DNA from: Schmidtea polychroa
Taxonomy: Eukaryota
Reading direction: 5' to 3'
Assembly: GCA_044892525.1 (NCBI GenBank)
Contig: CM097885.1
Location: forward strand, 21,454,001-21,518,000
Length of the DNA: 64,000 bases
The translations under genes and the position numbers were made by a program. The notes under the pieces are model-generated. The model was not told where the DNA came from, searched no databases, and worked only from the letters and a program-made list of their open reading frames with translations. This document shows positions 3,764 to 63,148 of the stretch, in pieces; position 1 is the first letter of the stretch, and each line of letters begins with the position of its first letter.

Positions 3764-3904
3764 CTATAATAAATTTCATCATTTCTTTTTACATTTTCTT
3801 TTTCTAATTTTTTATGGTTTTGGCACGTTACTTTACTGTATACAATAACTTTATATTTACTTTACATCGTTTTTACAAAATATTTACAGTTCCCTTCTAT
3901 CCGT

Positions 3905-5329: not shown

Positions 5330-5418
5330 TCTACAATGATGATTTTTAATCTTGGGATTTCTACTTGATTATAACTCTATTTATTTACAGGATTATTTAC
5401 ATTTCACTCCTTTCTCTC

Positions 5419-5874
5419 CTATACATCTACCGTCGAGTCCGGTTCCCCTGTTCCTGGTAACCCGGTCATCCACTCGACTAAACTGGTAATATCATCATGT
5501 TGTCGATTTTCATGCAACCTTCTAATTTCTTCCGCTTGCCATCTGATTTGGCTTATTAACTGATTGTTATTATACTCTAGTTGCGCGATTATTTGGTGTT
5601 GTTCCTCTATTTTTGTAATATATATTGCATTTCTATTAATACTCTCTATCAACGCCGTTTGGTTTCGTACCCAGTGCTCTTGAGTCTGATTTGTCAATTG
5701 GGTCATTAATTCACACTGTGCCCTCCACATGGATCCTGTTGGCTGACTCGGCTGGTTTGGCACGTTCATTTCCATCATGTCTACTGGATGTACATTCATA
5801 AGCGGCTGTTCTCTTACTTCAACAACATGTGGTATCCCATTTGGGTGTTCTTGCTCTTCGTTTCTCTGGTTCAT
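5419..5874 (-). CDS. Orphan accessory protein, 151 aa, short coiled coil
   Basis: Clean ORF in the accessory array; acceptor-like TAAATAG|GAATG at its start; no recognised domain. Confidence 0.65.
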   Translation of the reverse strand: MNQRNEEQEHPNGIPHVVEVREQPLMNVHPVDMMEMNVPNQPSQPTGSMWRAQCELMTQLTNQTQEHWVRNQTALIESINRNAIYITKIEEQHQIIAQLEYNNNQLISQIRWQAEEIRRLHENRQHDDITSLVEWMTGLPGTGEPDSTVDV

Positions 5875-6022
5875 TCCTATTTATAATACATGGTCATCAT
5901 ACTTGTTTTTGATTTTTCTACATATTGTTTTAATTTACTACTTTTATTTTGTACATACTACTACTATTATCACTACTTTTATCATTTCATTTATACATTA
6001 TTTACAACAACTCCTCCTCTCG

Positions 6023-7924
6023 TTATACCAGTGTCGCCATGGGGCCGGAATGCAGCGTGCGCATTCCCCCATATCTTTCGTCCGTTATTCGGTATATATC
6101 GACTTCGTGTGTCCATTCGTTCGGTGTGGGTATTCTTGGTAGTTCCGACATCCACAATCCGCTGGATCCGGGATCCTCTACCACCTCGTATTCTTCTATA
6201 TTCAGATTCTCTGTTGGAATACCGTATTCAAATTTTTCCACTTTGGGCCATTTTCTTTGATTTCTCGGTTTTTGTTTACATCTTTTGGTGGTTCTTATCC
6301 ACTGAATCATTGCTAACGCTATTATCGTGCTTACTATCGCGCTAGTTATCCATATCATCTTTGTGATGATCGTTGTTCCATTATTTGTTTTTTCTGTCGT
6401 TAATATTGTACTACCTGTGGTATTTGTTTCTGGTGCTTTGATTTTCTTGAATGCTTGATGTAATCGTTCCTTCTCTTTTTCTGTTAGGTGACTGTGATTT
6501 TCCCGTTTCTCTCCCCCTTCTTGATCTCGGGGTATCCACGGTATGTTTATTAATTGGGGTTTTTGTCGAGTTATTGGTTGACATACGCTGGTTCCTCTTC
6601 CTTTCTTAAGGATACATACTTGGTATCGTTCTTTCCGTTTCCCTGTCTCTATTTTAACGTCTGTACCTTTGTCTATCGGTGTTGTTGTACAGTCGATTAT
6701 TCCCGTCTTATCCATTACACATATCCTTATGATTGGTTCTCCTTCCTGGTTTTTGACTGTAATTACCTCTTCACCTTTCTTGTTGAGGTTAATAGTTATC
6801 TGCACTTCCCGTCTTTCGTCTTTAATTACTTCGTTAATCCATGTTGTTGTTGTTATTAATTCGGTTTGATTTTGCTCTGTTGTTGTTTTTGTACTAACTG
6901 ATTTGTTTGGCTTCTTGGTTGTTATCCCCCTCAATGGATCTTGTTTCATTGCCATACTCTTTGGCTTGTCTTTTCTTGGTGCAGTTCTTGTTCCTTTACA
7001 TACTACTATCCCTTGTGTTCCTGCGCATACCACAGTAAGGGTATTTGGTTTGACCTCTCCCCAGAAGAATTTGTGGTCTTGTGTCATATCAGTTATTATG
7101 CATATGTCTCTGTCTTCTCTGATGCATATATGTGTAATTGATCGACTCCCTTTATCTTCTATTTCGATACCTTCTTCCAAAATGTTGAGTTGAAAATGTA
7201 CTCCGGTTTCGTTGGCTCTTTCTAGCTCCATTTCCTCTGTTGATATGTCTCTACAGATGTCATAATCTCCACATAGCCTGGGATCTCTTTTTTGGCTGCT
7301 AAAAATCTTTCCTTTTGTTATTGATCTGAAATCACAACTTACTCCTGTTCCTTCCATTAGTTGCACACATATTCCGACGGCATTTCCGTCGTAATCACTG
7401 ACTTTTATCATAAATACTTCACCTTCTTGGGAAGCTTCTCTTACGATTCTCATATTTTTTGTTTCTGTTAAACAGATGGATGTTAATATTATAAATATTC
7501 TTTGTAGTAGGATTGGCTGGATTTGATTTCGACACACTATGCTATGTAGTGGGGACTTTCGTTTTTTGTTCTCCGTTTTGTCGAATCCTTGATCTTCACC
7601 TCGACATTGGTCTTCTTCGTCTTCTTCCAATTCCTCATCATCACTCGTTGTTTCTCCGCCTTCCGGATTCTGTTCTCTGTCGTTTTCCTCTGGGTTGTTA
7701 TCGTTATCCCCCATCCTTTCGTCGTCGTCGTCGTCGTCATTCCTCTCACCCGGGGTTTTCCTGAAAATGTCGTCCTCGACATTTGCTGCTTTGATCATCT
7801 CCTCGTATTTTTTAATTATCTCTTTTTTGCCGTTGTGGATACTTTCTCGTTCTTCTTTGGTTCCTTGATATTTCCGTTGTTTCCGGTGCCATTCCCACAC
7901 TAGTATTTCTAGTTGCTTTTTCAT
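6023..7924 (-). CDS. Predicted type-I membrane glycoprotein, 633 aa, overlapping the polyprotein end in the +1 frame
   Basis: Internal hydrophobic stretch ILLQRIFIILTSICL, Cys-bearing repeated beta-like segments, N-X-S/T sites, Thr-rich stalk, TM MIWITSAIVSTIIALAMIQWI, Tyr-containing tail. Confidence 0.7.
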   Translation of the reverse strand: MKKQLEILVWEWHRKQRKYQGTKEERESIHNGKKEIIKKYEEMIKAANVEDDIFRKTPGERNDDDDDDERMGDNDNNPEENDREQNPEGGETTSDDEELEEDEEDQCRGEDQGFDKTENKKRKSPLHSIVCRNQIQPILLQRIFIILTSICLTETKNMRIVREASQEGEVFMIKVSDYDGNAVGICVQLMEGTGVSCDFRSITKGKIFSSQKRDPRLCGDYDICRDISTEEMELERANETGVHFQLNILEEGIEIEDKGSRSITHICIREDRDICIITDMTQDHKFFWGEVKPNTLTVVCAGTQGIVVCKGTRTAPRKDKPKSMAMKQDPLRGITTKKPNKSVSTKTTTEQNQTELITTTTWINEVIKDERREVQITINLNKKGEEVITVKNQEGEPIIRICVMDKTGIIDCTTTPIDKGTDVKIETGKRKERYQVCILKKGRGTSVCQPITRQKPQLINIPWIPRDQEGGEKRENHSHLTEKEKERLHQAFKKIKAPETNTTGSTILTTEKTNNGTTIITKMIWITSAIVSTIIALAMIQWIRTTKRCKQKPRNQRKWPKVEKFEYGIPTENLNIEEYEVVEDPGSSGLWMSELPRIPTPNEWTHEVDIYRITDERYGGMRTLHSGPMATLV

Positions 7925-20306: not shown

Positions 20307-21176
20307 TAAACTGAGGTTTCCTTTACTTTTTCGCCTCGTTCGGTTAGCTATGCTATCAATTTTTCCTCTTTTTAATATCCTTTGATAAATTTTCTACTTT
20401 GTCAATCGAGCTCGATGTTTCCTAAGTATTTTTCTCGCTTTAATCTTTACGATTCTCTAACTCTTCTTGGATTTGGTTTTATTAATTTCCTTGATTCTTC
20501 GCTTCTAATTGATTTCTCTATATCTCTTGATTTCTATTGCTTTCTTGATTTCTTTGATTTCTTTCTGAATTGTTTGCTTTATTCTAAAATAATTAACACC
20601 TCTAGTACATATCATAAATTCTCTTTATTAAACCCTTCATTTACTTTCCCTTTTCCCTTTATTTTACTGTCCCTTCGCTTCAAATTTTCTAGCTTTTCTA
20701 CACTTCTCGCTATTCGCCCCATTTTGATTTTAAGTTGATTTTAAATTATCTATAACTCGTATCAATTATCTATATAGTCGTATCAATTATCTATCCCTTT
20801 TATTATTATCATAGAAATATAATATTAATCACATAAATATCAAAATAAACATATCATTAATAAATAAAATTCAATAATTCAACTACTATCTATTCGTTCG
20901 CTTTTCCCCATCCAAAAACTGGTTTAGTTTTCGCTTGCGCCGGCGCTTTATCATAATTCTCCTCTACTCATTACATATTTATCGCACTTAATCTATTTCA
21001 GTTTAATCAATTTCATAGTTAATCATTGATGCTTTGGTTCGCGCGACCTCTACATCCACCTTTATTTACCATCGGCTCTCTGGCCGGTTTGTTCAACTCC
21101 TTTATTTTCATTTAAATCATTTCACTCAATTACCATCGGCTCCTTGGCCGGTTTAATCAACTCATTTTAATCTCAT

Positions 21177-21490
21177 GAAGTCTTTTACGACTCCTAGACG
21201 CCTGGGCTTTTACACCATTACGCCATATAATCTATTATTACCCATCAACGCTTTGGTTTGTTAGACCTCCGCGTCGGCATCGGCTTCCGGCCGGTTTAAT
21301 CAAAATTGAAGTCTTTTACGACTCCTAGACGCCTGGGCTTTTACACCATTACGCCATATACTCTACTATTACCCATCAACGCTTTGGTTTGTTAGACCTC
21401 CGCGTCGGCATCGGCTTCCGGCCGGTTTAATCAAAATTGAAGTCTTTTACGACTCCTAGACGCCTGGGCTTTTACACCATTACGCCGTAT
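21177..21490. repeat. 131-bp tandem repeat (~2.4 copies) in the element leader
   Basis: gaagtcttttacgactcctagacgcc at 21177, 21308 and 21439. Confidence 0.92.
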
Positions 21491-22896: not shown

Positions 22897-23379
22897 TTAT
22901 GGGAGGTATATTACAATTTTCTCTCTAACATTCGTATCGCATACGTTGCATCGTTTAATTTTCTCTGCGCAATTCTCGCAGTAGCATAAATGACCACATG
23001 GAATCGTCATTACTCGTATTTCATTGGTTCTGCATATGAAGCATTTTCTAAAATCTTTAACTTGATGTTCGATTGCTTCTTTAATTTCTTCCTCGATCGT
23101 TTCCATTTTTATCATTATCTCCTGCCATTTGATGTTAAATTTGGCATTGTCTAATCGTAAATTTTGAAGTTGATAAACTCTTTTAGTGGTCAATTCTGCA
23201 TTAGGTGTCGCTATTTTCATCATTACACATATTTCCTCAGCTTGCGGTCTTGGATTCAAGCTCATCTCATCTTGGATTTTTATTAACTGGTCCGCTTTGC
23301 GATTTAGCCGTTGTAACGAATTGTGTGTTAAATCTACGAATTTTTCGAGTCTCTTTGTAATGTAGCCGGTTGATTCCAT
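22897..23379 (-). CDS. Coiled-coil + IAP-type RING protein, 160 aa, between PBS and gag
   Basis: CFIC..IPCGHLCYCENC..CNVC..VIYLP terminus; acceptor CTTAATTAG|ATG. Confidence 0.85.
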   Translation of the reverse strand: MESTGYITKRLEKFVDLTHNSLQRLNRKADQLIKIQDEMSLNPRPQAEEICVMMKIATPNAELTTKRVYQLQNLRLDNAKFNIKWQEIMIKMETIEEEIKEAIEHQVKDFRKCFICRTNEIRVMTIPCGHLCYCENCAEKIKRCNVCDTNVREKIVIYLP

Positions 23380-24077
23380 CTAATTAAGATTTATTAATTA
23401 AAGTTCTCTTTTTATTAATATTCCGCGTCATTTTCCCCCTTTGTCGTTTTTCCCCCTAATATCCAGAATACTTTATTTTATTAGTGCTTCGATAAACCTT
23501 TACATTCTACTTATTACCCTTAACAACCCCGTCTCCCTCTGTTTAATGCTCTATTCCGCGCACATTTCTTTCATGATCTTGTGATTTTATTACAATCGTT
23601 TTAATTATATATAACTCATATCCCATTCCTTATCGCCATATTTTACACGTTTTCTGATTAAGTTTAATTTCATTGTTCATTTGTTCTATCTTTATTAGCG
23701 TGCTATCCCCCCTTTTCCCTATTTTTAAATTTTTATTATTTCCTTATATTTACATTTTATTAACCGTTGCTATTTACAATTTTATTATAATTTGTTTTCG
23801 TTTTAATTTTCGTTTATCCTCATTCATTCTATTACTAAGTTATTCGTACAGCATTCTCATACCCACTTTCAATACATTCATATGTCGTCATACTTTAAAA
23901 CTTCCATCACTCATTTAGACATTCTACATACATTTTATCATATTCGCATATCCATATACTAAGTTTAAGCGCTTGGGAAAACACCCTGCTCGGTCTTGAA
24001 TGCATATCACTTTATATCCGCTTTTACTCTCTCTATTATATCTATTCTCGGGTTCTTTCACCAATTAAATTTTCAAT

Positions 24078-24095
24078 ATCCCGGCTGAGCCCCCA
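24078..24095 (-). other. Primer-binding site complementary to tRNA-Pro 3' end
   Basis: TGGGGGCTCAGCCGGGAT, 16/18 identical to the MLV tRNA-Pro PBS TGGGGGCTCGTCCGGGAT, just inside the LTR. Confidence 0.9.
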
Positions 24096-24501
24096 AATTT
24101 GTATGGTGGGTTACTGGTGGTTGAATGATTGAGTGCTGTTACCAGCGTAACCCAAAATACAACATTGTTTTTCCGCTTGGTACCCGTTGAGTGATCAACG
24201 TTGGTACTGTACCAAGGGTTGAGTACTCGCAAAAAGTGAGCGCATCAAAGCACTATAGTTGTCGAGTACTCCGTGGGTTCACGGACTACCGATAGAAGGT
24301 GTGTGTCCGATTTCTCAGGTCCCTTTATCAAAATTGTTTTCCCAACCTTATGCACAAACTCTCATTTCCCAGGCAATCATAAACTGTACTAGTCATTATT
24401 TTATCACTACAAAACGTGCAGTATTTTAACAAGGAACATATTATTTGAAGACTACCACAATACATAAAAATACTACAAAACACCTAAAACCGAATATAAG
24501 T

Positions 24502-24971
24502 TCAAACAGGCCTATTGGTAGGACTGGCCAATTCCGTCGCAGCTGCTAGTGACGAATTTGCTTGTCGCTCGTATTCGGCCAGTCTAGCTTTCTTCAATTT
24601 TTCCCGAATATTTCGGCCTAACCGCTTTCTTTTGGGTTTCTCTTTCGCGGCCGGGGGGTATATTGCTGCTAGTTCCACGGTCAACGGCCGGATTTGGTTT
24701 ATGGCGGCTCCGTGAACTACTTGTTCATTTCGCTCGGTTTCTAGCGCGCGGAGCTGGAGCTTCAGTGCCCGGATCTCCATCTGATCCTGCGCGGCTTGAG
24801 TCTGCAGTTGAAGGACCCGCGCCACCTTCCTTTTCATATCCTCGGGACTAAACCAGGTGCTTTCTAGTTCCCGGCACCGTCCCTTGAGCTTGTCTACTCG
24901 TATGCGGAGCTCCTCGGACTGTTTTTGAGCTTCTGCCCTATCCCTTCGCAGATTTTCCAATAGTTTGAACA
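24502..24971 (-). CDS. LTR-encoded coiled-coil protein with basic tail (3' exon)
   Basis: Homologous to 39032-39465 (ESTWFxPxxMK, AQDQxExRAL). The track's GTG start is really the acceptor TCTAG|TG. Confidence 0.75.
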
Positions 24972-25181
24972 CTAGATAAATTCAACGATTATATTCTTGC
25001 AGCATACTATTCATTCAATTATAAAATAAAATCAATATTATAAATAAACATAGTTTCGGAGGTTAAGCACGCAATACACAAGATGATTTATTAAAAGGAC
25101 TGAAATAATTATCACTAAAATCAAAGTTTAATAAAGTCACAACTGAATGATAATTTGCAAAAACAAAATTTCGACGATAAG

Positions 25182-25547
25182 TCAGTTCAGTCGCTTGCGA
25201 GGCCTTCCCCTCTTCCGCGGGGTTGCCTCGGCCTCTTCTAGGTCCTCCACGGTTTTTCCCTCCTTTTCTGCTTGGATTTGTAGCTCGATCTTCTTGAGCC
25301 GCATCTGAGCTGCTTCTACCTCGATGGCCGCTCGGTCGCGGGCCTCTTGCAAAAAATCGTTTGTGGGCTCTGTTTTTACCCACGCCGGAGCGTCCGGCTC
25401 CGGCCCACTCCTGATTACTGGGCCAAAGTTGTCGAGGTCCAAACCCCGATTCCAATCATGGATACGGTGCCATATGTACCGTGTACGGAGTCTGGTAAGC
25501 ATCTGTCGGTCGGCTTCTTCGTGGCTATCGCTGTCAGAGTAGGACAT
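25182..25547 (-). CDS. LTR-encoded AT-hook protein, 121 aa
   Basis: C-terminal TPRKRGRPRKR; LTRLRTRYIWHRIHDW shared with 39969-40451; acceptor TTTTGTAG|AAATG. Confidence 0.75.
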   Translation of the reverse strand: MSYSDSDSHEEADRQMLTRLRTRYIWHRIHDWNRGLDLDNFGPVIRSGPEPDAPAWVKTEPTNDFLQEARDRAAIEVEAAQMRLKKIELQIQAEKEGKTVEDLEEAEATPRKRGRPRKRLN

Positions 25548-26059
25548 TTCTACAAAATAATAATCAAGCCCCTCTATACTGATTGAGATACGACGTCAAC
25601 CACAAGATTTTGTTGACCCCTTTTCCCTTTTAAAAAAAAAATATTTTATTTTTAAGACTAACATCTATAAGCTTAGGAGTAGTGGAATAAGGTTTCCTAC
25701 TTTATCAAAACAAACACACAAAAAAAAATTTTCGTCAAAATTCGTTTGTTTAAATTAATCATTTCCATTCAAAATTTTGTTTACCACTGAGTAGTAATTT
25801 TAATTACTATTTATAAATTTTAATTTACATGTTAATAAAATGTGAATTTTTTCCTTTTTGATCGTCATTTTTAGGCCACTAAATTCGGGCACGCTGGGGC
25901 GACAGGTACTAGCAACGAACTAAGCTCTTCGTCTGCTTACCTTTCCTTCGGTTGTGCTCGTTATGAGTGGTTTGCTCTGCATACAAGTAATTTATTTAAT
26001 TTGCTAATTTCTAAATTTCCAGGTGATCGATATCGGATTGGGATATCGATTTTTTTGTA

Positions 26060-26420
26060 GTTAACTGTAATAATACCAATAATAATAACAATGAAATAAC
26101 GATACTAATAATAATAATAATAATGACAATAATAATACTAATAATAGCAATGATAGTAATAATAATAAGAATAATAATAGATTTTAATAATGGTAATAAT
26201 AATAATACTAATAATAGTAATAACAAGAATAATAATAAATTTTTATAATGGTACTGATAATGATGATAATAATAATAATGCTAATTATGATATTCATAAT
26301 AATGATAATAATGATATAATAATAATAAGAATAATAATACTAATAGTAATGATAATGTTGATACTGCTAATAGTAATAACAAGGGAAATGATCAGGATTA
26401 TGATGACTATAATTTTATAA
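26060..26420. repeat. Degenerate (AAT)n microsatellite inside the LTR
   Basis: Seen directly; counterpart at 41880-42120. Confidence 0.9.
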
Positions 26421-27693
26421 TCCCATGTTTTAGAATTACAAATTCATGTTTTATAATTTACACTTTGATAATTTTCGATTTATAATTTAAAATTTTTCCA
26501 TTTAGGGATTTACAACCTTGTAATTTATAATTATAATTTCATATTTTGAAATTTATACATTCATATTTTATAAGTTGTAATTGCTTAACTTATAATTTAT
26601 AAGTTTATAATCTAAAATTTATACTTTTGTAATTCGTATTTTCATACTTTATATTTGAAATTTTTAGTCGACGGAATATACTTCTTACAACTTCCTTTCT
26701 ATGATCAACATTGTTTTCCGCAGTACTTACAAATTTCCTGGTCCTATTTGTGGATTAAACTTCAGGGTTCTAGCGCGTCTATCGCCTATCTGTAACCAAT
26801 CCTAAGTTGATTTTTATACGAAAAATTGTTTACTACTATCTCTGATCAGACTTTCTCCATTAACAATTTACATTTTCAGGATCGACGTGATTTGTACCTA
26901 GCTATCGTAATTATTTATAACTTATAGTTTTATAGTTAACAACAAGAGTATTACAACTAAGAGCCTACACATTTACAAACCTTTTAAAGTGGGAACTAGA
27001 TTTAAAATGTCTATCTTTACTCGGAATCAGTATCCCTAGATCAAGTTATACCTGTACGTATGCCGAATATCTCTCTTATTTCTATTACTTTATCAAAGAT
27101 CCTTACTACAAAATCTAGTTCGGCATATGTCTAAGTATAATTGAAATTACCATTATGAATCAACGAGCTACATTAATGTGAGTGTAGAATTGTGTAATTT
27201 TAGGTACGAGCTCTACTCAAATTAGAACCTTAGTGTAGAGTTATTGTTCAGGATTTTAAGTGTTGAGTTTAATTGTATATTACGCAATGAGTCGGGAAGA
27301 ATATTGCTTCCATGGCCCCACTGTGACCACGTCCACAAACCTTAGTGTTGTGTGCTAAGTCAACCATTTACGGCTGACCTTAAATAAATACGAAGAGTCA
27401 GGCGGAGGGTTTCCTCGACCTAACTCCATGGCAGGACCATGAAGTAGTTCGACCTCCGGCTGACCCGAACAAAAAGAAATCATATAATAAATATCACTAT
27501 AATAATGATAATGCGTGTCTGCATGTCCTGTTAATAACGATTTTAATAAATTGGATGCAGGACTGAACAACGACGCAGGAATACCAGTACGCCGTTGATC
27601 ACTCATACATCGCAAAAAAAAAATTTTAAGCAAAAATAAATTTAAAATACCATCTATATAATTAAACAATTAATATACAAATAAAGATCAATG

Positions 27694-27774
27694 CTTACTA
27701 TCGATTTTGGAAATTTCGTCACAAAAATTTGGCATAAAAGTGATTATTGTGACTGAAACGTGTCAGTATATATA
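27694..27774 (-). promoter_or_regulatory. Putative LTR core promoter and leader exon: TATA 27774-27767, Inr-like TCACTT ~27741, donor A|GTAAG at 27699/27698
   Basis: TATA and an A|GTAAG donor recur at equivalent places in LTR copies near 31400-31485 and 43660-43745. Confidence 0.6.
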
Positions 27775-27829
27775 CCTATTTAGTACACGTGTATGTATTG
27801 ATGCATTAAAACAAACTCGAATTCTTTTT

Positions 27830-28150
27830 ATTCCAGAATTTTCTATTTTACGATTTTGCTATTTTTAATGGCAATTTTTGTGCCATAATTTTTGTTTTTA
27901 TTTTTATATTTTTATTTTTTAATTATTTTTCATTAATTTTACGTCCATGATGGATTTGGAACGGTTCCAGAACATTCTATTTTACTTTTAATTTAATTTT
28001 TATTTTAACTGATGTTTTTATGAATTCTTTTTGAGATTTTTTATTTTTAATACTAATTTATTTATTTTCCTTAACTTTTGTTGTTCTAGATAACTCTTGT
28101 GATGGTCATCGCCATTTTTATAGAATGTTCTGGGTTTTTCTGGAATGTTT
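27830..28150. promoter_or_regulatory. Heat-shock elements in LTR U3
   Basis: TTCcaGAAttTTC (27831), TTCcaGAAcaTTC (27965) and an in-phase six-unit array with mismatches (28123-28150). Confidence 0.65.
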
Positions 28151-28429
28151 TACTGTTTTTATCGTCTTTTAAGTTATTCGAGTCTGTTTTTTGTAACTCT
28201 GTGTTTATTTGGTTATTTTTGAGTTAGATTTTTGCATCACTTCTTGCTTTTGTATAATTTTGTTTAATTTCTTTGTTTATGTTTTTGTTGCTTTCTCCTT
28301 TAGTTAATATTGTTTATTTGGTGTAGGTTTTAATATTTAACTATACTTGGTGCTTTTTTACTTGCTGTGTACCTACGCGTTTCAGTCACAATTAGTATTT
28401 TGGGTCTAGAAATCAGTTCTAGCCCAACA

Positions 28430-32552: not shown

Positions 32553-34429
32553 CACGTTAGATGATGAGAGCAGGCCCATCACTACATTTACCCTAGATAA
32601 ATATTATGGAAAAGGGCCAAACAAGTATAGGGTCAATGTATTCGCCGAAGAACGTAATTAAATAAAAATTCGCTATCTCTCTCAATCCAATTTCCCAACA
32701 GTTCAACAATCCGATTCTCCAAATAAAAATAATAACTTTCAACATCTCCTGTGTGTACATAATCTTAATTCGAACTCTATTCTATTGACATTATTTTTTA
32801 TAATATTCATAATTTTAATTTGAACTTTATTTAATTTTACTTTTATTCATCTATATCTGTATGACCTTCATTTATATTGAATTTTATCTTTATCAAAATT
32901 GTATTTTATTGTGAATTTTTATTTTAATGTCACTTTTGTATTTAAATTTTTATTGTAAAACAAAAAACATATATATATAAAGGGTATTTAAAAGAAATCA
33001 ATTTTTATAAATAATTTCAAAGTTAATATGAACGAAATAAATTAATTCAAATTTTAAGACGATAAATTAATATGCATAGTCTCAAGTATAAAGTAAATAA
33101 AATTAATTCATATGTGTAAAGAGACTGAAATAAATTAAATTAACTTTAACCCGTCCAAATTAATGTCGATATATTTAATTTCTAAATAGTCTTATAGCTT
33201 ACCCAACCTATTGCCGAATTATTCAATTATAGAAAATGTCCAAGAATCCCTCAACCACGACGCCTATCCGGCCATGCTTCTCGTGCGCCGACAAAAACTC
33301 TATCATTAAGACATTGCAAACCCAAATCGGTCTATTGAAGAAGAAGATAAACCATTTTGAAGGGACGTTGTTCACGTCCACGCAAATGAAAGAAATGCGG
33401 ATGAAACTATCTCGGGTTGAACACTGCCGCGATAGTCTTATAGAGGAGAGCCGTACTCAGTGGCTTCTCATTAAAGAGCAATCAGAGGCCTTGCACAAAG
33501 TCTATGTGCAAGCGACCCTAACCAAGACAATCGTGACCGTGCCTATCACGGAAGAAGACGATGTCTTCGCCCTACATCATCAAACAACAGAAGTCAGTCA
33601 AACATCAAGAAAATCCTGCACCAGCTGTGTGGACACGCTTTTATCGCCGCCCAATTCCTATATCTGTCACGGGGGTCAGTCAAGTGACCTCGAAATCTAT
33701 TCCACATCCAGCGAAAATCACACCTCCAGTGTCACTGGTCAAATCAAAACGCCGACAACCGACACGATCGGAACGAAACAAAAAACGGAAGGCTTTGCAG
33801 GCGGAACGAGAGACCCAACTAGTTGCTGAAGGGATTCAACTAGCCCTAAAAACTCCATCTGAGGCGCCAATAACTTCAACGGGGCAGTTTCGCGTCGTAC
33901 CACCTTACAGTACTTCCTGGGAAGAACACACCAGGGACTTATTCGATTTGGACGAGCTTTACGCAGGAACCTCACCTTCCACGTTAGGAGACCCGACGCG
34001 GAATCCGCTATTGTAAATATAAGAACTGAATAGAATGTCTTTATCGAGATCCTCTCTGTATGATCGTTGTGGTTTCAAGTCTCTATGATATAACTAGGGT
34101 AAGTATATTTTATTCTTAAGGTCGTGTACCTGTGGATAAATAGGGGTAGCGCAAATCAAGGTCTCAATGAGCGAGGTAAGTCGTAAGTCTTTCTATCGGC
34201 AGTCAGGAGAAGGGTAAAACGGAATATGGTGAATGAGTACTCATAAGGCAGGGGCTCACCTGCTTCACTATATTCCTCCATCATGGCACAGTACCAACAT
34301 GACGTAAGTCATGGTGTGAGAGCGATCATGAGGGGTCTGAGTAGCGGTCACAAAGAGTTCCTTTAGTTTGATTGACCTTCATTCCCTAGTAGAGAGTGAA
34401 TGTGTGTTGACCTAGTCGACAACCCAACA
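32553..34429 (+). mobile_element. Partial LTR of a divergent subfamily
   Basis: Ends ..acccaaca; carries the coiled-coil gene homolog and the TTCTATCGGCAGTC..ACAGTACCAAC motif. Left boundary uncertain. Confidence 0.6.
33236..34016 (+). pseudogene. Frameshifted LTR coiled-coil gene (ORFs 33236-33829 and 33561-34016)
   Basis: FEGTLFTSTQMKEM resembles FESTWFPPTEMKK; the basic tail lies in the second frame; acceptor TTATAG|AAAATG. Confidence 0.55.
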
Positions 34430-35218: not shown

Positions 35219-37217
35219 TTAATCAACTTCTTCAACTGTCGGACCTTGTTTCCCAGCACCTCCTTGTCCGCCAGCTGCACCCGGCGCACCACCTGGAAAT
35301 CCGCCCGGGAACCCTCCAGCACCAGCACCACCTGCTCCTTGATACATTTTAGTCATTATTGGATTACATATCTTCTCCAATTCTTTATAATGATAATCAA
35401 ACTCATCCTTAGTCGCCTGTTGATTCTTTTCCAACCAATTTATCGCTTCTTGACATTTATCAATTATCAGTTTTCTATCTGATTCAGAAATTTTATCTTT
35501 CAATTTTTCATCTTCAACTGTTGATTTCATTTGGTATGAATAACTTTCCAATGAATTCTTTGCAGCTATTCTGTCTTTTTGTTCTTCGTCTTCCTTTTTG
35601 TATTTTTCAGCTTCATTAACCATGCGTTCAATATCATCCTTTGATAATCGTCCTTTATCATTGGTAATGGTAATTTTATTCTCTTTTCCTGTACCCTTTT
35701 CAACTGCAGACACATTCAAGATACCATTTGCATCAATATCAAAAGTAACTTCAATTTGCGGAACACCACGTGGAGCTGGTGGAATTCCAGCCAATTCAAA
35801 TTTACCAAGCAAATTATTGTCCTTTGTCATCGCTCGTTCCCCTTCATAAACTTGAATTAAAACTCCCGGTTGGTTATCAGAATATGTAGTAAATATTTGC
35901 GTTTGCTTGGTTGGAATAGTTGTATTTCGTTTAATTAAAGCTGTCATCACTCCACCGGCAGTTTCTATACCCAAGCTCAATGGAGCTACATCTAATAATA
36001 ATAGATCTTGTACAGCTTCTGATTTATCTCCTGACAAAATTGCCGCTTGTACTGCTGCTCCGTACGCAACTGCCTCATCGGGATTGATGGATTTGTTCAA
36101 TTCTTTTCCATTGAACAAGTCTTGAAGGAGCTTTTGAATTTTGGGTATTCTTGTTGATCCACCAACTAATACAATCTCATGAATTGTATTTTTATCCAAC
36201 TTAGCATCTCTCAATGCTTTCTCTACTGGCTCTAAAGTCGAACGGAACAAATCAGCATTCAATTCCTCAAACCTTGCTCTTGTAATTGAAGTGTAAAAGT
36301 CAATACCTTCATATAATGAATCGATTTCCAAATTTGCTTGTGCACTGGAACTCAAAGTTCTCTTTGCTCGCTCACAAGCTGTTCTCAATCTTCTAACTGC
36401 TCGCTTGTTATCACTAATATCTTTCTTATGCTTCCTCTTGAATTCTTGAATAAAATGATTTACCATCCGATTATCAAAATCTTCACCACCCAAATGAGTA
36501 TCACCAGCAGTAGATTTTACTTCGAAAATACCATCTTCAATTGTTAAAATTGATACATCAAAAGTTCCTCCTCCTAAATCGAATATTAACACATTGCGTT
36601 CAGCACCGACCTTTTTGTCTAATCCATAAGCTATAGCAGCAGCTGTTGGTTCATTAATTATTCTTAAAACATTTAATCCACTAATTGCACCAGCATCTTT
36701 AGTTGCTTGTCTTTGACTATCATTGAAATAAGCTGGAACAGTTACAACAGCATCTTTAACTGTTTTACCCAAGTATGCTTCTGCAATCTCTTTCATTTTT
36801 ATTAAAACCATCGATGAAATTTCTTCGGGGAAAAATGTTTTTGTTTCACCTTTGAATTCTACTCGAATTTTCGGTCTACCAGTTTCATTTATTACATCGA
36901 ATGACCAATGTTTCATGTCACTTTGAACTGACGATTCATCAAATTTTCGACCAATTAATCGCTTTGCATCTAGAAGATTTTAATTACTTTACTCTAATTC
37001 AGTATTAATTCTTACCGAAAACTGTATTATTAGGATTCATCGCCACTTGGTTTTTTGCAGCATCTCCAATCAATCGTTCGGTATCTGTAAATGCAACATA
37101 ACTAGGTGTTGTGCGGTTTCCTTGATCATTCGCAATAATTTCAACTTTCCCATGTTGAAATACACCAACGCATGAATATGTAGTACCCAAGTCAATACCA
37201 ATAGCGTTACCAGACAT
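35219..37217 (-). CDS. hsp70: Cytosolic Hsp70/Hsc70, 650 aa; exons 37217-37016 and 36969-35219
   Basis: [31 protein letters not shown]; a 46-nt GT-AG intron restores NTVF-DAKRLIG. Confidence 0.98.
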
Positions 37218-38216: not shown

Positions 38217-39031
38217 AACATAAGAGTTGTAGATAAAATTCATTAATTTGTAGTAAGAGTAAATTATGAAGTCTGAAAACAAAAGAATATAGTCAAGAGC
38301 ATAAAATGACACCAGAGATAATACTTTCTTAAAAATGCTCTTTTGATAACAATACATCAAAGTTATAATTTCCTCCATAACTATTCATAATCATCTTGTT
38401 TATCATTATTGAAAGGACTTTCTCCTTTTCGTTAGGAAATAACATATGCTTTTGGTGCTTACTATTGCTTCTCTTGTATACATCCCTTTGGTATCCATTT
38501 CATTAACTTCTTGAAATTCTTATTTTTTCTCAAGTTCAGTTTATTCTAGATTCTGCGGTTTAGTTGCTTTCTTTATATCCGACATTGTGATCCATATTTC
38601 ATCATTTATCTTGTACAAGGAATCTAACAAATTGGTACATTTATCAATTTTTCTCGGAACATAATATTTGTCTGTCAGTATTCTTGTTAGTGGTTGGTAA
38701 TATACTGTCATATTGGTGGGTTACAGGTACTGAAAAATCGTTACCTCCTCATGCTGTTTCCAACGTAACCCAGGATACAATTTATAGCTGACCACTTGAT
38801 ACCCGTTGAGCAATCAACGTTGGTACTGCATCAAGGGTTTGGGTACTAGCAAAAAGTGAGCATGCTTAGCATACTATAATTGTCTAGTACCCACTGGGGT
38901 TCACGGACTGCCGATAGAAGGCCTATGTCCGGTTTCTCTAGTCCCCGTTATGACAATCAACATTATAGAAAAATCACAATGCCCGACATGAGTGTGCCAG
39001 TAAAGATATATTCATAACAACAAATCGGAAC

Positions 39032-39465
39032 TCATAGGGTTGTAGTCGGTTCTTTCGGTGCGGACTCTGACAAAGTAGCATTGAGTGTCAATTGGGCCTG
39101 ACAGGCTTGGCGGATTCTCGCCCGCGCCGCTTTACCCGGCCGAATCTTCTTCTTCGAGATCTTCGACGCTTTTTCCTTCGGTTGGTGAAAAAGTTCACTC
39201 ATAGGTCGGATCTTGAGAATGACCTCTCGATCAAGGTCCTGTTGGTGTACCTTGACCTCCAGCTCTCTCACTCTCAGGCGGAGGGCCCGCAACTCAACTT
39301 GATCTTGGGCGCTCTGGAGTTGCTTCTTCATCTCTGTGGGCGGGAACCAGGTGCTCTCGAAATTTCGGCAATGGGCCTTAAGTCGCATTAACTTGGCCCG
39401 GTATTCTTCTACTTGTTGTTGCGCCCGCTCTCTATCTGCCCGCATTTCTTCCAGGAGTTTTAACA
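39032..39465 (-). CDS. LTR coiled-coil protein homolog (3' exon)
   Basis: Open homolog of 24502-24971; acceptor TTTCAG|TG. Confidence 0.7.
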
Positions 39466-39968
39466 CTGAAATAGACAACATTAGGAATCTTTACCTCAGC
39501 ATTGAGTGACGCAAGTTAGTAAGGTTAAATGAATGTCGCCCCTTCGTCACTACTCCCTTCTGCGCACATCTAGGCCTATTCTATGGATTTCACCAAAGCT
39601 TATAGGGTGGTCGTAATGGCCAACGCTACGGAAAATTATAGTCGGTGGTAACAATGGCCCCCGTTAAAGGAAAATCATTGAAATCAAAACGATGCACACA
39701 ATGGAATTAGTATTGATAATTAATACATACATAAATAATTGAACTAAGAAAATTATCATCAATAATAACACTGGTTAATGAAGATGATCAAAACGAAACA
39801 ATATCAATAATGAAATTAGTAGAGATGACCAGAACAAAACAGAGCAGTTAGATCGGCACGAACTGCCCAGACGTACAAGGTACTATAAAAACATTCATCA
39901 TATTACAGGATTTGCACTGTGTATTAACAACAAAATCATTTCGGCTATATAATGTTTAATTATAAGTC

Positions 39969-40451
39969 TCAATCTTTGTCCGCCCCAATCTCCTTGGTGG
40001 AACTGGTGCCTTTTCGTGGTCGTCCTCGCCTTCTTTGCCGATTCGGTCCACGGCGAGGGCTTCTTGGATATTCCAGCCCACGTTGGAGAGCCGCAGTTCG
40101 TCTTGGGTGACATTGGGCTCGTGCGTACCCGTCACAGTCTTCCAACTCGCCGGCCAGGGTTGCTTCCTCGAGTCGGTGTAATCGGTCCACCGCCGCCTTT
40201 ACCTCGTCAAAGGCGTCGATCAGGGCTAATGACGTGCCATTGATGTAAGGCTCTATCTTCGGTTTCACGGGGACCACATTCTGGTAGGTCCAATCATGGA
40301 TTTTATACCAGATCCACCTGGACCTCAGGCGAGTGAGTGCTTCTTCCTGGTCCAGTCTGGCGACTTCGTCTACCTCCGCGTGGTTTAGGCTGAGTCTGGA
40401 TGTAGATGTCAAGGGATTCGCGTGGCTGTCTTCTGGTCTAATATTAGGCAT
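39969..40451 (-). CDS. LTR AT-hook protein homolog, 160 aa
   Basis: LTRLRSRWIWYKIHDW and RRRGRPRK; acceptor CTCACAG|GCATG. Confidence 0.7.
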   Translation of the reverse strand: MPNIRPEDSHANPLTSTSRLSLNHAEVDEVARLDQEEALTRLRSRWIWYKIHDWTYQNVVPVKPKIEPYINGTSLALIDAFDEVKAAVDRLHRLEEATLAGELEDCDGYARAQCHPRRTAALQRGLEYPRSPRRGPNRQRRRGRPRKGTSSTKEIGADKD

Positions 40452-41879
40452 GCCTGTGAGATTAAGAGAACATATTAGTAAAATTCTATTCGCTCGTCTA
40501 CATCCGGTTACCCCAAGACGTTTGATACACTATTACATTTAAGTTCAAACGTGACCCGTATTGCAATGATCTTTTAGGTGGTGAAAAATGAACTTAATGT
40601 ATTGATTAATTTCCCCTTCTGATTTCGATGTAATTTAAGTGGGCTAGAGAATTATGAAATTCAAGGTTTGTAAGTATCAGTTACAAAATTGCAGTTCGTA
40701 TGTTTAAAGTGAAAATCCATAAGCTGTTTTTTGATGAACTAATGGTTGATACAGTAAAAATGAGCATTTAAAATTTTATAAACTAAACTTTCAATAGCGG
40801 TTGTTTAAATCATTTAAAGATTTAATTTCACTGTTTATAGCATTTTATATTAATTTAAATATTAATTTTCCTTTAATGATTTTTAGAATTCCCTGTTAAT
40901 AATTTTTGCAAAAATTTATTCTACTAGGACCCACTATGGGAAGTGGATGTCGCAAATTGTCTGAATTTACATTCAGCTCTTGCGAATCCCTGACCATAGT
41001 GGTTGTAAGTAGTTCCCTCATCAACTGATACTTAACGGGTAAATTAGCTTTTTAAATCTTTTAAGTTTGTATAGTTTCAGGAATGAGTCTCCAAACTCTT
41101 CACTTTGAAGGTGACAACTTAGATAATGGATTCGAGATGCCACTGTTTGATGGAAGTTCAAAATATGCCAGCGCTCTAACTTTGTGAGGATTTAGCTGGG
41201 TAATATTATTTATTTAGATTTTTGATCTATGCCTTGGAGTTCTAAGTTCACCAATTTCACCCGAAGACGTCCAGCGATTTGTCATTTGCTTTCGAGGATT
41301 TACCCTGATGGGAGTATTTAGTTATATAATTCTCGCAAAGCGAGCATTCAAAGGGACTTGTATGTATTGATTTATTTATGCCGTTTTCTGTTTTTTGAAG
41401 AGTATTTTGGTCAATAAATCCAGCTCAATTTTTGAATCTTTGATTTCTTTACACAATCCTACTCGGATATTCAGTTTTTTAGGGTAGCTTCGGCATGATT
41501 TTGTTTTTGCTGGGGTAGGCAAATGAACTAGAGTGTTCCTTCGTGCGATGATCCGAGGGACAATTCCATGAGGTTATTATTAATATAGGTATACACACGT
41601 ACACTCACAAATGCACATACGCAGTTATAACTACATAAATTTACAAATTTAAGTTACTGATCCTGAAGTCATTTACTGGGGGGTGTTACTAAAAATAGAT
41701 CTCAGGGATTTTTATTGGAGGGTAGGGTCTTTGTAACTAATTTAGAAATAGGGGGATCCCAAAAATCAAAAGTTTTGGTTAAAGTTTTATTTAAGAAAAT
41801 AATCCTTCCGATAACGTAACCATAATGGTAGTAATGACCAAGGTGAAAATTAATGTCAACAATACTAACAGTAGAAATA

Positions 41880-42120
<241 letters not shown>

Positions 42121-44699
42121 AGGTTAATCATGATAATAAGTGTAAGTTTTATGCAGTGGGTAATAAATGTATAATTCAAGGGGGGGGTTCATTTATGAAT
42201 GTTTATAACTTATTAGTTTAACATTTTACAGACCAAATATATGCTAGAATGAGTTAATTTAAGACATTTATAGAACAGATAATGAAGGTATGATTCAGGG
42301 GGGGTTGTTTATGAATATTTATAAATTATTAGTTAAATATTCTATAAGCTAAATATATATAAAAATAAGTGAATCTAGGATAATTAGGTAAATATATAAC
42401 CTAGGGGCTAATTACGTAGATTTATCATTTTAACATTTTGTAAGTTAAATATATATTAAAATAAATTAGGATATTTAGGTACTGGACGATAAGTATATAA
42501 CTCAGAGGATCATCTATGAAAATTTATAAACTATCATTTTTAGATTTTATAAGTTAAATATATACATCAAAATAAGTTAGGATATTTATGCATGAAAATT
42601 TACAAACTATCATTTTAATATTTTATAAGATAAATATATACATCAGAATAAGTTAGGATATTTATGAATTGGACAATAAATATATAATTCAAAGAACCAT
42701 TTATGAAACCAGGTAAGTTGTACATATTCAAGTTGGGTTATAACCATGAACTGGTGATTCGACGACTTTACGACATTGGTAAGAAAGATTGCCTTTTCTT
42801 TAAATTTAATATGCTGATATATGCAATTTCATACTGATGGTAATGACACACTCTCTATGAAGAATCGAGGAAAGGGTGGTGAGGATAATGATAATAATCC
42901 TGGAGGTGATAGTACAATTAATGTAAAATAGAATTTTTAAAGATTTCATTAACTTTCAATACCCATAAGGTAAGTATAAAGACTTGTAATTGATACATCA
43001 TTGAACGTGGTTAGATTATCTTTAAAATTGAACATAATTATGAATAATATCAATAAAATCTAATAACAATAGTTAATATTGAGCATATTGAATAATAGTT
43101 TGTGCAATTAGCCGACTACTTGATAATCTTTGTAATAATTTAAGTCTGGGACATTTCCCGTTTAGATTTTCCTACTGATGTGTCTCCTATAAGATATTTG
43201 AGTGTGCATTTTATGTATGTGATTTACCGAAAGGTCGATTTAATTAAAATTTTCCTACTTTCCCGACTCAACTGAATACGGTACGATAGGCCTTATTGTA
43301 TTGTGTTTCCCGCGATTAATTTCCCAAATTTTATTTCGTCCGCATAGTCCCTGCGACTATGCCAACTACCTGGATGGATTTACCGCCCTACTCCTGGTTA
43401 GAAACCATTTGTTCGTGGCGACCTTCCGGTTAAAAAAAAAATGAAATTTTGTGCATGCAGGGTCGTAGACCCGATTGTGTGCGTGTGGACTATCAGTTGG
43501 AAACAAGGCTGATCAGCGTCGTGGATGCCATCCGTTCACGACGACGCTGGTCACTCTTGTTCAGTAATAGTAGAATTAAAAAAGTCAACAGGTTAAAAAA
43601 TATAATAAATATAATAATAATGAAACACAAATAAAAATGAAATTAATCAACAATCCTTACTTTCAGTGTTGTTCAAAGTTTCGATAAAAATTTTTGGCAT
43701 ACAAAAATATCTGAATTGTGACGAAAATGCGTCGGTATATATATACCTATTTTGTACACGTGTATGTATTGATGCATTAAAACAAACTCGAATTCTTTTT
43801 ATTCCAGAAGTTTCTATTTTGTAATTTTGATATTTTTAATGGCGATTTTTACGTCATAATTTTTATTTTTATTTTTAAAATTTTATTTCCTAAATATTTT
43901 TTGCTAATTTTTCCTCCACGATGGATTTGGAACGGTTCCAGAACATTCCATATTACTTTTAATTCAATTTTTATTTTTAACTGATATTTTACGAATTTCT
44001 TTTTAAGAAATTTTATTTTTAATACTAATTTATTTATTTTTCTAAATTTTATTGTTTAAGGTAGCTTTTATGATGGTCATCGCCATTTTTATGGAATGTC
44101 CTGGTTTTCTGGAATTTTTGCTATTTTTACCATCTTTTAAGTTATTCGAGTTTGTTTTTTTGTAACTCTGTGTTTATTTGGCTATTTTTGAGTTAGATTT
44201 TGCATAACTTCTTGTTTTTGTATAATTTTATTTAATTTCTGTGTTTTAGGTTTTTGTTGTTTTTTCCTTTAATTACTATTGGTTATTTGGTGTAGTTTTT
44301 AATATTTAACTATACTTTTTGCTTTTTGCATGCTGTGTACCTACACATTTCGGTCACAATTAGAAATTTGGGTCTAGAAGTCAGTTCTAGCCCAACAATA
44401 TTTCAATATAGTAGGGGTATTTATGGATTTCGAATGGACTCTTTCTAAACGCCTTCATGACTATTGTCTTTATACCATCTATGTTCCCATGACTACGACC
44501 ATATTGGTGCTGTACACAATGGCTGAAAATCCATGAGCATTTATTTATTTATAACAATTTCATAATAAGAAAATCTGCACAATAAACATGAGGGTTGTAG
44601 ATAAATTCATTAATTTGTAGTAAGAGTAAATTATGAAAAGTCTGAAAACAAAAGATTATAGTCAAGAACATAAAATGACACCAGAGATACAACTTTCTT

Positions 44700-46774: not shown

Positions 46775-47640
46775 GGTGGGTTACAGGTAAGCATACATTT
46801 TACCTTGTCGTGCTGTTTCCAGCGTAATTAAGAATACAAACAAGTGTCTTCTCCGCTTGATACCCGTTGAGCGATCAACGTTGGCACTGTATCAAGAAGG
46901 CGAGTGCTCGCAAAAATTGAGCGCACTATTTGCACTATAATTGTTGGGTACTCCTTGGGTTCACGGACTGCCGATAGAAAGGTTTTGTCCAATTTTCCTT
47001 GGTCCATTCACCAAATTGTTATTCCAATACCGAGATCAGATCATCACGCTTGTTACACGTATTCATCATTTTCATCAATTCAGGCACACACGCATCCTTC
47101 TCAGGGTAAATTTTCAGTGAACATTCATAATTATTTATTCGATCACAACTCGTGATTCAAGTTCATGCGGGCTAATTTCTCGTTGTTAAGCGGCATTGGC
47201 CAGTCTAAGTTTCTTCAACCTTTCCTGCATGTCCCATCCCATCCGTTTACGTTTTGGCTTGCTAGTTTGAGCCGCTGTGTAGATTTCGACCACTCGGTTG
47301 GCAAGGGCCGGATTCGCTCAGTCACCTCTCGATCGATGACCTGTTGGTTGAGTTGGGTCTCCAGAGTACGTACTTGGATCTTTAGGGTGCGGATCTCCGT
47401 CTGATCTTGGCTGCCTGGAGTTGTAGCTGTTGTATGAGCACCAATCGTTTTTTTCATTTCAATGAGGCTGAACCAGGTGCTCTAAAGCTTCCAGTATCGC
47501 CCCTTGAACTTGGAGATTCTGGCCTGGAGTCCTTCCACTTGTTGCTGGGCTTGCCCCCAGTCTTTCCGTAAATTCTCAAGGAGTTTGAACACTAGAAAAC
47601 AAAGAAAAAGCTATTAAATTCATTGAATTACATTAAATTA
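46775..47640 (-). mobile_element. Truncated LTR 3' part with a frameshifted coiled-coil gene
   Basis: 46775-46985 aligns with 24105-24300; QDQTEIRTLKIQVRTLE..IRPL; acceptor TTCTAG|TG at 47591. Confidence 0.75.
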
Positions 47641-50431: not shown

Positions 50432-50995
50432 TTATCGAAATATTCGTAGTAAAACGCCTTGGTTTATTAAATTTTCGCAATCAGAGAGCATCAAAAAATG
50501 AGTGCTCCCCTTAAACAAATGTATTATTCCATCAATGGTTTCCAACTCTCCGTAATCTTCCAAGCATTTCACTTCGACTTTCAAATTTTTAGGTGGTTGA
50601 CTTCTTTCTGACAAATCTAATCCGTAACACGAATTTAGCATTAATGAACCTAAACTTTTATTATAGTTCTTCAACCAATCTTTTTCACTTTCTGTCATAC
50701 ACGCTTGAATTTCTTGTGGAAGAATAGGACCATAAACCCAACGATATTTTTTTATATCCATTAATCTTTGACGGCTATATGCAAGCAATACTCTTCGATC
50801 TCTATCAATACATTGATGTCTAACAAGGCATGTATAATACATTTCTTGATTTTTAAGAAGAGCATCTTGTCTTATTTGATCACCCAATAACTTAATTTCA
50901 TCAGTAACCTCCTTAAACAGTTTATCATCAAAAGGAGGAAGTCCCACTAAATGATTCTTGTATTTTTCTAATAATTTTATCGAAGAATCATTCAT
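50432..50995 (-). CDS. GINS1: GINS complex subunit Psf1, 187 aa, intronless
   Basis: LPPFD, RDRRVLLAY..R, E..W...Y, PPKNLKVEVKCLEDYGE..G, HFL...CE.LI.QGVL. Confidence 0.92.
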   Translation of the reverse strand: MNDSSIKLLEKYKNHLVGLPPFDDKLFKEVTDEIKLLGDQIRQDALLKNQEMYYTCLVRHQCIDRDRRVLLAYSRQRLMDIKKYRWVYGPILPQEIQACMTESEKDWLKNYNKSLGSLMLNSCYGLDLSERSQPPKNLKVEVKCLEDYGELETIDGIIHLFKGSTHFLMLSDCENLINQGVLLRIFR

Positions 50996-62790: not shown

Positions 62791-62947
62791 CTGAGATCCA
62801 TCACGATAGGCTTGGGGACAGTGCTGGATGTCAATGGTATCGGAGTTGGTTAAGCAGAGAACCTAAACAGGCAACGGAATGATGCTCTCTGTCAGATTCG
62901 CCTGCATAGCTAAGGGAAAACCACGGATGCGGGCCTCAAGCTGGTGT

Positions 62948-63148
62948 TTAGTATAGACCAAATTGAAGGCATGAAATTGCTCGTGTATCAGGATCCTCTG
63001 AGTCTATGAGACTGTCCCGACACTGCTCGAGTCTGAACACTTTCTGGGACATTTCTTTCATCTGGATGGGGGTGAAACAAGTCCTCTCAAATCTATTGAT
63101 CTTGGCTCTCAATAAGCAGATCTCATCCCTCAGGGCTGTTCTGTGCAT
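62948..63148 (-). pseudogene. Fragment of the LTR coiled-coil gene family
   Basis: KINRFERTCFTPIQMKEM..RLEQCRDSLI matches KINHFEGTLFTSTQMKEM..RVEHCRDSLI of ORF 33236. Confidence 0.65.

Follow-up and report, generated by a model that had tools for sequence, protein, structure and literature searches.

The window analysed here, a stretch of 64,000 nucleotides (G000:C1:21454001-21518000) from an assembly of 781 Mb and four large chromosomes, carries on its minus strand a Burro-type gypsy element of family F1 (Table 1). The 5' LTR of this element and its 3' partner (L031), 29,852 bp away, differ by two mismatches in 4,326 bp (99.95% identity), and this near-identity, together with the TG...CA ends, the target-site duplication and a primer-binding-site-like sequence, identifies the former as the 5' LTR of a young insertion. 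The primer-like sequence is presumably of the tRNA-Pro type. A Pfam scan of the interior recognized one long polyprotein and accessory genes with BIR, RING and TRAF domains, and tandem 131-bp repeats (21176-21490) lie in the leader that separates gag from the RING gene. Elsewhere in the genome, three F1 LTRs at 30-kb spacing are found at G000:C4:44132295-44192255 and at C2:156108700-156168948; these three-copy arrays are tandem elements with a common LTR. The window also contains a second LTR, of family F2, which is a solo LTR as judged from its LTR-type ends and its own target-site duplication, and which has neither a primer site nor internal sequence. Host-like open reading frames lie at 35219-36916, 50432-50995 and 58386-58844, and are putatively Hsp70-like, GINS Psf1-like and RRM-like, respectively.

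Table 1. Features of the element, of its LTR and of related sequences in the window; positions are those of the window.
Feature	Position	Strand	Remarks
Burro-type gypsy element, about 34 kb	minus strand of window	-	4,326-bp LTR plus 29,852 bp between LTR copies
5' LTR, family F1, 4,326 bp	24104..28429	-	TG...CA ends, 4-bp target-site duplication
TATA box	27767..27774	-	about 655 nt into LTR; in 59 of 69 F1/F1b/F2 LTRs
Predicted non-coding leader exon, 45 nt	27699..27743	-	start inferred at TATA+31; last base A; donor between 27699 and 27698
Predicted splice acceptor of gene B	25550..25551	-	AG 1-2 nt ahead of ATG in most copies
Gene B, 121 aa	25182..25547	-	Trp/His-rich conserved helix, second helix, C-terminal AT-hook-like RGRP
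Predicted splice acceptor of gene A	24972..24973	-	followed by TG (AG/TG)
Gene A exon, 155 codons past junction	24502..24971	-	long helices, E-x-T-W-F-x-P motif, Lys/Arg-rich helix
Poly(A)-signal-like hexamer after gene A	24440..24445	-	non-canonical in F1, canonical in sister families
Conserved folded LTR end block, predicted U5	24104..24330	-	z = -3.4
Primer-binding-site-like sequence	24078..24095	-	also after 5' LTRs of F1, F1b, F2 and F3
First internal accessory ORF, RING finger	22897..23379	-	acceptor immediately before ATG
Polyprotein, 4,090 aa	7812..20084	-	Gag, MATH, fusion glycoprotein, protease, RT, RNase H, integrase, ankyrin (Pfam scan)
Frameshifted A-type gene, family F3	33236..34016	+	LTR end 34429
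Solo LTR, family F2, 5,684 bp	38714..44397	-	TG...CA ends, own 4-bp target-site duplication
Signals of the solo LTR		-	TATA 43745; donor between 43661 and 43660; gene B 39969-40451; gene A exon 39032-39465
Broken A exon, older family	47160..47591	-	stop and frameshift, acceptor kept; LTR end block about 46775-47027
Degraded, frameshifted F3-type A fragment	62866..63136	-	

At the coding level, an earlier note on this DNA had placed a coiled-coil gene (A) and an AT-hook gene (B) within the 5' LTR and homologues of both within the solo LTR (39032-40451), where they occupy 39032-39481 and 39969-40451. Both pairs of frames do lie inside true LTRs, in the final 1.5 kb of each, and it is almost certain that A and B are coding and under selection. 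Among ten natural copies of each gene compared pairwise, dN/dS of gene A was 0.07-0.35 in nine within-family pairs, with bootstrap intervals below 1 in all but the closest pair (8/9), and that of gene B was 0.10-0.50 in the unsaturated within-family and F1-F1b pairs. As a frame control, the annotated frame alone was both stop-free and of low dN/dS in six of six ungapped pairs. The divergence of the surrounding DNA was also borne out, given that similarity between the F1 and F2 LTRs is confined to their first 770 and last 190 bases and that synonymous sites between the two families are saturated (pS 0.76-0.85, with pN 0.40-0.52). In the genome, all 150 scored matches of the B frame are 99-100% identical and stop-free, mostly as pairs spaced by about 30 kb. 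The extent proposed for gene A had to be revised: the frame is real, but its coding region begins at the acceptor (24972), 44 codons upstream of the listed ATG (24837). These 44 codons are themselves selected, with pN 0.04-0.30 against pS 0.47-0.84 in five informative pairs of six, the sixth being nearly identical, and their position before the first ATG of F1 implies that gene A needs a start supplied from upstream.

Protein A is modelled as three long helices (pLDDT 82, pTM 0.34), and A-type proteins carry 7-11 Arg/Lys in their best 15 residues in all 14 proteins checked, a figure of composition only and without a chance control. A leucine-rich export pattern appears in 11/12 F1, 12/26 F1b, 37/40 F2 and 2/10 F3 proteins and in about half of the shuffled sequences; taken across families it does not consistently exceed chance (in F3, 2/10 against 5.2 in shuffles). 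Protein B is modelled mainly as long helices. The AT-hook attributed to it was upheld at the level of a motif: the RGRP core (R-G-R-P with basic flanks) is present in 110 of 126 open B frames of at least 115 aa, some copies being counted twice, but PF02178 reaches at best 12.4 bits, below its gathering cut-off of 17.4, in two of the three B proteins scanned (E up to 1), and the B of the window itself gives no PF02178 match at E up to 0.1. An (ATT)n tract was considered as the target of B and rejected, as it is found in 7/7 F1 and 32/35 F2 LTRs but in just 2/16 F1b LTRs. Such tracts lie at 26059-26414 (F1) and 41880-42140 (F2), inside the predicted intron, and are mostly missing from F1b and F3. 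B exons seem, from sequence comparison, to have been swapped between subfamilies relative to their A genes (L155, L166, L177, L150, L106). The B of L166 is nearer to the F1 B (pN 0.17) than to that of L155 (0.27), and the A genes of F1b differ by pN 0.03-0.06.

Searches outside the element gave little. Neither A nor B has a homologue among proteins of near-equal length in sequence searches, nor does the B alignment among longer proteins; no Pfam family at cut-off, usable atlas cluster or fold was obtained for either, and fold searches with both returned nothing at E 0.001 or Z 5. A profile of A retrieved 17 matches among 1.8 billion proteins, one of them of the F2 type. Another resembles the genome of the window at only 31-51% identity, which indicates that the A family is present in another genome too. 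Several public gene models (P0002-P0008, P0013) join A-type exons to host-like domains with which they have no relation, and the other nine matches examined are mostly fragments within longer gene models, several of them with a long Arg-rich run. The fusions are probably prediction artefacts arising from LTRs inside introns, and they call for caution, as A exons get fused into host gene models.

With respect to the signals that would serve these genes, the TATA box sits near nt 655 in nearly all of the 59 LTRs that carry it, and the remaining 10 of the 69 are cut off, mutated or deleted there; at the counterpart position F3 has a CCAAT box plus a TATA box. TATA, initiator-like bases and donor are conserved across families at nt 655-730. 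A donor-like word with A at -1 follows TATA by 75-90 nt in 59 of 59 LTRs with differing exon ends, against a background of 92/281 for A at -1 in similar words elsewhere in the same LTRs, although the 59 share ancestry and represent a handful of independent cases. At the other end of the predicted intron, a pyrimidine tract and AG/TG precede gene A in 159 of 165 matches that reach the exon start, some copies having been fetched twice. The simplest reading is that the A/TG junction of leader and gene A exon would create the start codon. Family F3, in which gene A brings an ATG of its own, serves as a control, and there the base at -1 of the first donor-like word is G in 23/31 LTRs. The leader exon also contains an ATG, whose frame is not conserved. 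Two other arrangements were rejected: a peptide of exon 1 fused to A or B, for which the leader frame is not conserved and the spacing of the B acceptor varies, and a B-to-A fusion, for which inspection by eye found no conserved in-frame donor in B. In five of eight internal ORFs a YAG lies no more than 3 nt from the ATG, against a background of 11% (P = 7e-4), and the internal accessory genes are probably served by the same predicted leader. Taken as sequence signals, all this makes it likely that A and B belong to one spliced, LTR-internal transcription unit.

Sequencing contigs and genomic copies were inspected for direct traces of splicing. No splice joint was found in contigs of the runs X1, X2, X6, X7, X8 and X9, five of which are presumed to be RNA and one of which is of unknown kind, and stretches they leave uncovered were not counted as evidence; some contigs of X1 cross the A acceptor unspliced. 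Pattern searches, run without a positive control, found 0 intron-less genomic copies of F1 or F2, and none of the deletions in five short LTRs falls on the splice sites. A poly-T loose end at 28037 in X6 sits at an A-rich stretch and was set aside. One X1 contig joins position 24313 to 27758, that is, the end block to the TATA block, and the depth of X2 at the end block (24037-24403) is about 20 times that on the ORFs; these observations hint at related LTRs that lack A and B or carry diverged versions of them. A GC-rich block with inverted repeats lies 100-150 nt past the donor (about 27600-27540 and 43560-43490, minus strand) and is conserved in F1, F1b and F2, which makes it a candidate leader hairpin or protein-binding site.

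The ends of the RNA can be approached through family F3. A donor at TATA+54 to +56 is present in 26 of 31 F3 LTRs; 24 of the 26 have a first intron whose tail exactly repeats exon 1, the repeat beginning at TATA+27 to +31, which points to a cap site about 30 nt past TATA for RNA that has been copied. This intron, of 45-53 nt (LTR nt 380-470), is precisely missing in L092, L093 and L250 when compared with L094 and L237, an absence that recombination between the repeats could also have caused. No such repeat was found in the 59 F1, F1b and F2 LTRs, and the RNA start of these families is therefore placed by analogy with F3. At the 3' side, AATAAA or ATTAAA follows gene A in 32/33 F2 and 16/16 F1b LTRs with neighbouring bases diverged; in F1, canonical hexamers lie between B and A and only a non-canonical word comes after A. 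Beyond it, the folded end block of about 230 nt shows two-sided changes at 12 of 37 pairs among 16 sequences, and it is a candidate response element for protein A. The predicted layout that these signals make probable comprises a U3 of about 690 nt, an R of about 3.3 kb that would hold both genes and a U5 of about 300 nt. An R of the predicted 3.3 kb would greatly exceed that of HTLV-1, for which 275 nt is quoted (PMC10186651).

First-look searches of the genome returned 2,633 to 6,645 candidates per query, and using other copies as queries recovered the sister families F1b and F2, older broken families and the distant F3, whose LTR of 3.8-4.2 kb has one A-type gene of 247 aa. An A-type gene occupies the same place of the LTR in every family examined; gene B is absent from all 32 F3 LTRs (0/32), which carry the A homologue, so that the pair proposed in the earlier note is not an obligatory one. 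The relatives listed there at 33236, 47160-47591 and 62948 exist, but all are of the A type only and all are frameshifted or stopped. The type at 33236 and 62948 represents the distant family (12/27 identities, E 8e-6), and one more broken A-type remnant lies at 55815-55948 on the plus strand. In older families an A frame of at least 140 aa is kept at 4 of 30 loci. Outside the window, L098 holds two diverged F3-type A genes 4.3 kb apart (1805-2561 and 6092-6760), each frameshifted near its end, and this two-A segment is duplicated at 100% identity in L099.

The idea that solo LTRs are working gene units could be retained for their structure and not for their maintenance. The 44 F2 loci comprise 25 solos, 9 LTRs in full elements and 10 unresolved cases. 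When 21 distinct solos were chosen by their non-coding DNA, 13 were found to keep both frames and 8 to have lost at least one, and 11 of the 21 retain, besides both frames, the promoter, the splice sites and the poly(A) word. Selection was assessed on changes private to one copy, with the rate and spectrum of the non-coding LTR as expectation, after 10 of 45 LTRs had been dropped, 2 as duplicates and 8 because they were truncated, frameshifted or had lost large segments. In 22 solos there are 42 synonymous changes, 86 non-synonymous changes and 4 stops, against 39.6, 89.9 and 7.3 expected, and the resulting dN/dS of 0.87 (0.60-1.29) agrees with neutrality, whereas domesticated solo-LTR genes should stand below 1. 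Eight provirus LTRs show no selection either (4 synonymous, 15 non-synonymous, 3 stops), and of eight F2 provirus LTRs scored for open frames just four keep both; five unresolved LTRs have an excess of synonymous changes in A (6 to 2) and not in B (4 to 14). The solo LTR of the window retains both frames, as had been claimed, but its gene A lacks 24 nt, in frame, that related copies possess, the poly(A) hexamer (39012) is one base off theirs and the ATG at 39481 lies inside the pyrimidine tract upstream of the acceptor. We conclude with good confidence that solo LTRs as a class are not under selection; their open frames reflect the youth of the solos, and it is during replication that selection operates. 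Among the thousands of solos, a few may nevertheless be selected. A young solo LTR could be transcribed, since all predicted cis signals lie within one LTR.

The reading that we favour, with a probability of roughly 0.55, is that the LTR is a self-contained, spliced two-gene unit whose products likely regulate the element itself. The RNA would start about 30 nt past TATA, 655 nt into the LTR, and splicing would join its 45-nt leader to one of the two genes, B or A, the A/TG junction providing the start codon of A; it would end at the poly(A) signal right after A, leaving an R of about 3.3 kb that includes both genes. Short RNAs wholly within the LTR would thus come first. Behind its promoter the 5' LTR is predicted to hold a strong donor, a pair of acceptors and a poly(A) site, and the element must escape these signals to produce Gag-Pol and genomes, a problem for which complex retroviruses use Rev-like proteins. 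Protein A would act here in a Rev/Rex-like manner, binding element RNA so that unspliced or read-through RNA for Gag-Pol and genomes is made or exported. That A works like Rev is a tentative proposal by analogy and implies no claim of family membership. Protein B, restricted to the F1/F2 lineage, would bind the A-rich promoter region through its AT-hook and help to keep the promoter active; it could there counter the piRNA-guided silencing reported for Burro (PMC8532177). Selection would operate through replicating elements, and solos would inherit the full unit, perhaps express it for a time and then lose it. Points that weigh against this reading are the contigs without a splice joint, the non-canonical hexamer after A in F1, the cap-site repeat found in F3 alone, the shared ancestry of the 59 donors, the length of R, the export pattern that across families does not consistently exceed chance, the lack of any sequence or fold link between A and Rev-like proteins and the AT-hook score below the cut-off. 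A bolder version, which we regard as doubtful, sees in this LTR of a flatworm-type gypsy element a complete early gene with a 3.3-kb R, alternative exons, a start codon created by splicing and a Rev-like switch that arose separately from that of vertebrate retroviruses, and in young solos dispersed helper genes that feed full-length elements, and perhaps act on host chromatin, until they decay.

Several observations can also be read in other ways. All signals lie within one LTR and 11/21 solos keep them, an AT-hook-like motif is present in B, A+T makes up 74% of the first 690 nt of the LTR, and Burro elements are reported to be silenced by piRNAs (PMC8532177), so that a counter-measure would pay. 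These points are what one would expect if A and B were a pair of DNA-acting transactivators or anti-silencing factors and solos were kept by selection as gene units, as the earlier note had supposed. This is nevertheless unlikely, as the private changes in solos accumulate at the non-coding rate, older families have mostly lost the A frame and all 32 F3 LTRs have A without B. Such a role would fit B better than A. A different use of B, as a tether of the integration complex to AT-rich microsatellites, is suggested by several insertions within (AAT)n or (AT)n runs, yet microsatellite flanks number 3/90 for the families with B and 3/37 for F3, which lacks it (P = 0.36), and we give this almost no credence.

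The position of the genes relative to the RNA start is a separate matter. If A and B lay in U3 like nef and sag, with genomic RNA starting near the end block and either the 3' LTR or a promoter of their own in the interior driving the two genes, no 3.3-kb R would be needed, the folded end block (about 230 nt) has the size and conservation of an ordinary R-U5, and the donor-like words within the end block of F2-type LTRs would find a use. Against this speak the TATA-initiator-donor block conserved across families, the exon-1 repeat of F3, most simply explained if copied RNA starts there, and the lack of any evident TATA-like element ahead of the end block in the alignment, and we judge the arrangement improbable, slightly more so than the DNA-acting pair. 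Alternatively, A and B could be accessory proteins whose target is the host or the particle, the LTR being merely the first stop of a common leader. Many host-directed accessory genes (IAP, TRAF, RING) of the element do have the same acceptor layout, a Burro IAP is reported to protect stem cells (as cited in PMC13465017), and B exons are apparently exchanged between subfamilies. However, both proteins carry basic motifs of the nucleic-acid-binding type, no signal-peptide, enzyme or host-derived family is recognized at the Pfam cut-off, and the A-type gene keeps its place in every family examined, which leaves this explanation about as unlikely as that of the DNA-acting pair. The spliced unit regulating its own element remains our preferred reading.

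LTRs usually count as control regions that code for nothing, and their solo forms as promoter donors. Here the LTR appears to be a whole spliced two-gene unit, present at thousands of candidate places. If RNA confirms it, gene control in the style of complex retroviruses would exist in an invertebrate gypsy element, and the unusually long R, if true, would raise questions on strand transfer and on the bypass of the 5' poly(A) site. The proposal is directly testable in planarians, in which Burro elements are piRNA targets and RNAi works.

Genes inside or overlapping an LTR have precedents in MMTV sag and HIV nef, single genes whose ORFs lie in or overlap U3, upstream of the transcription start. 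The earlier note had drawn this parallel, which holds for protein coding within the LTR and is probably wrong in position, as A and B lie downstream of the predicted promoter. Unlike sag and nef, they are two genes, with the predicted promoter 2.2 kb upstream of B and with an intron and a poly(A) signal inside the LTR. The element as such is of a known kind, Burro elements having been described before. It resembles Burro/GYPSM1, as portrayed in PMC6431247, in its size of more than 30 kb, its long LTRs, its polyprotein of Gag, MATH, env-like glycoprotein, PR, RT, RH, IN and ankyrin and its BIR and RING ORFs; it departs from Burro1 in a polyprotein of 4,090 aa instead of the 4,873 quoted. From this likeness to the published description we take the host to be a planarian. 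Section 7 of PMC6431247 names no genes inside the LTR, and no report of A/B-type LTR genes was found in the literature searched, although the primary Burro descriptions may already mark these ORFs.

Other parts of the proposed unit have counterparts in well-studied elements. The env of Drosophila gypsy obtains its start codon by splicing, as AT/G, between the leader and an internal env exon (PMC2585583 and PMC12992720), and gene A would likewise have a start codon split over donor and acceptor, although as A/TG and with both exons inside the LTR. MDG1-group elements, as described in 10.1101/2025.03.14.642691, have two small ORFs upstream of gag, sORF1 and sORF2, the latter encoding a fusogen-like membrane protein; A and B are similar to these in that a gypsy-type element carries, ahead of gag, a couple of short ORFs under selection, and differ in that no membrane-fusogen features are seen in either. 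Finally, in the Rev-like proteins (HIV Rev, HTLV Rex, MMTV Rem, HERV-K Rec) an arginine-rich motif is found together with coiled-coils (PMC5568270). Protein A resembles them in its small size, its predicted expression from spliced RNA and the combination of a predicted helical coiled-coil with an Arg/Lys-rich segment, and the element shares with their systems the need for both spliced and unspliced RNA; it differs from them in the absence of any sequence or fold similarity found and in being encoded wholly within the LTR.
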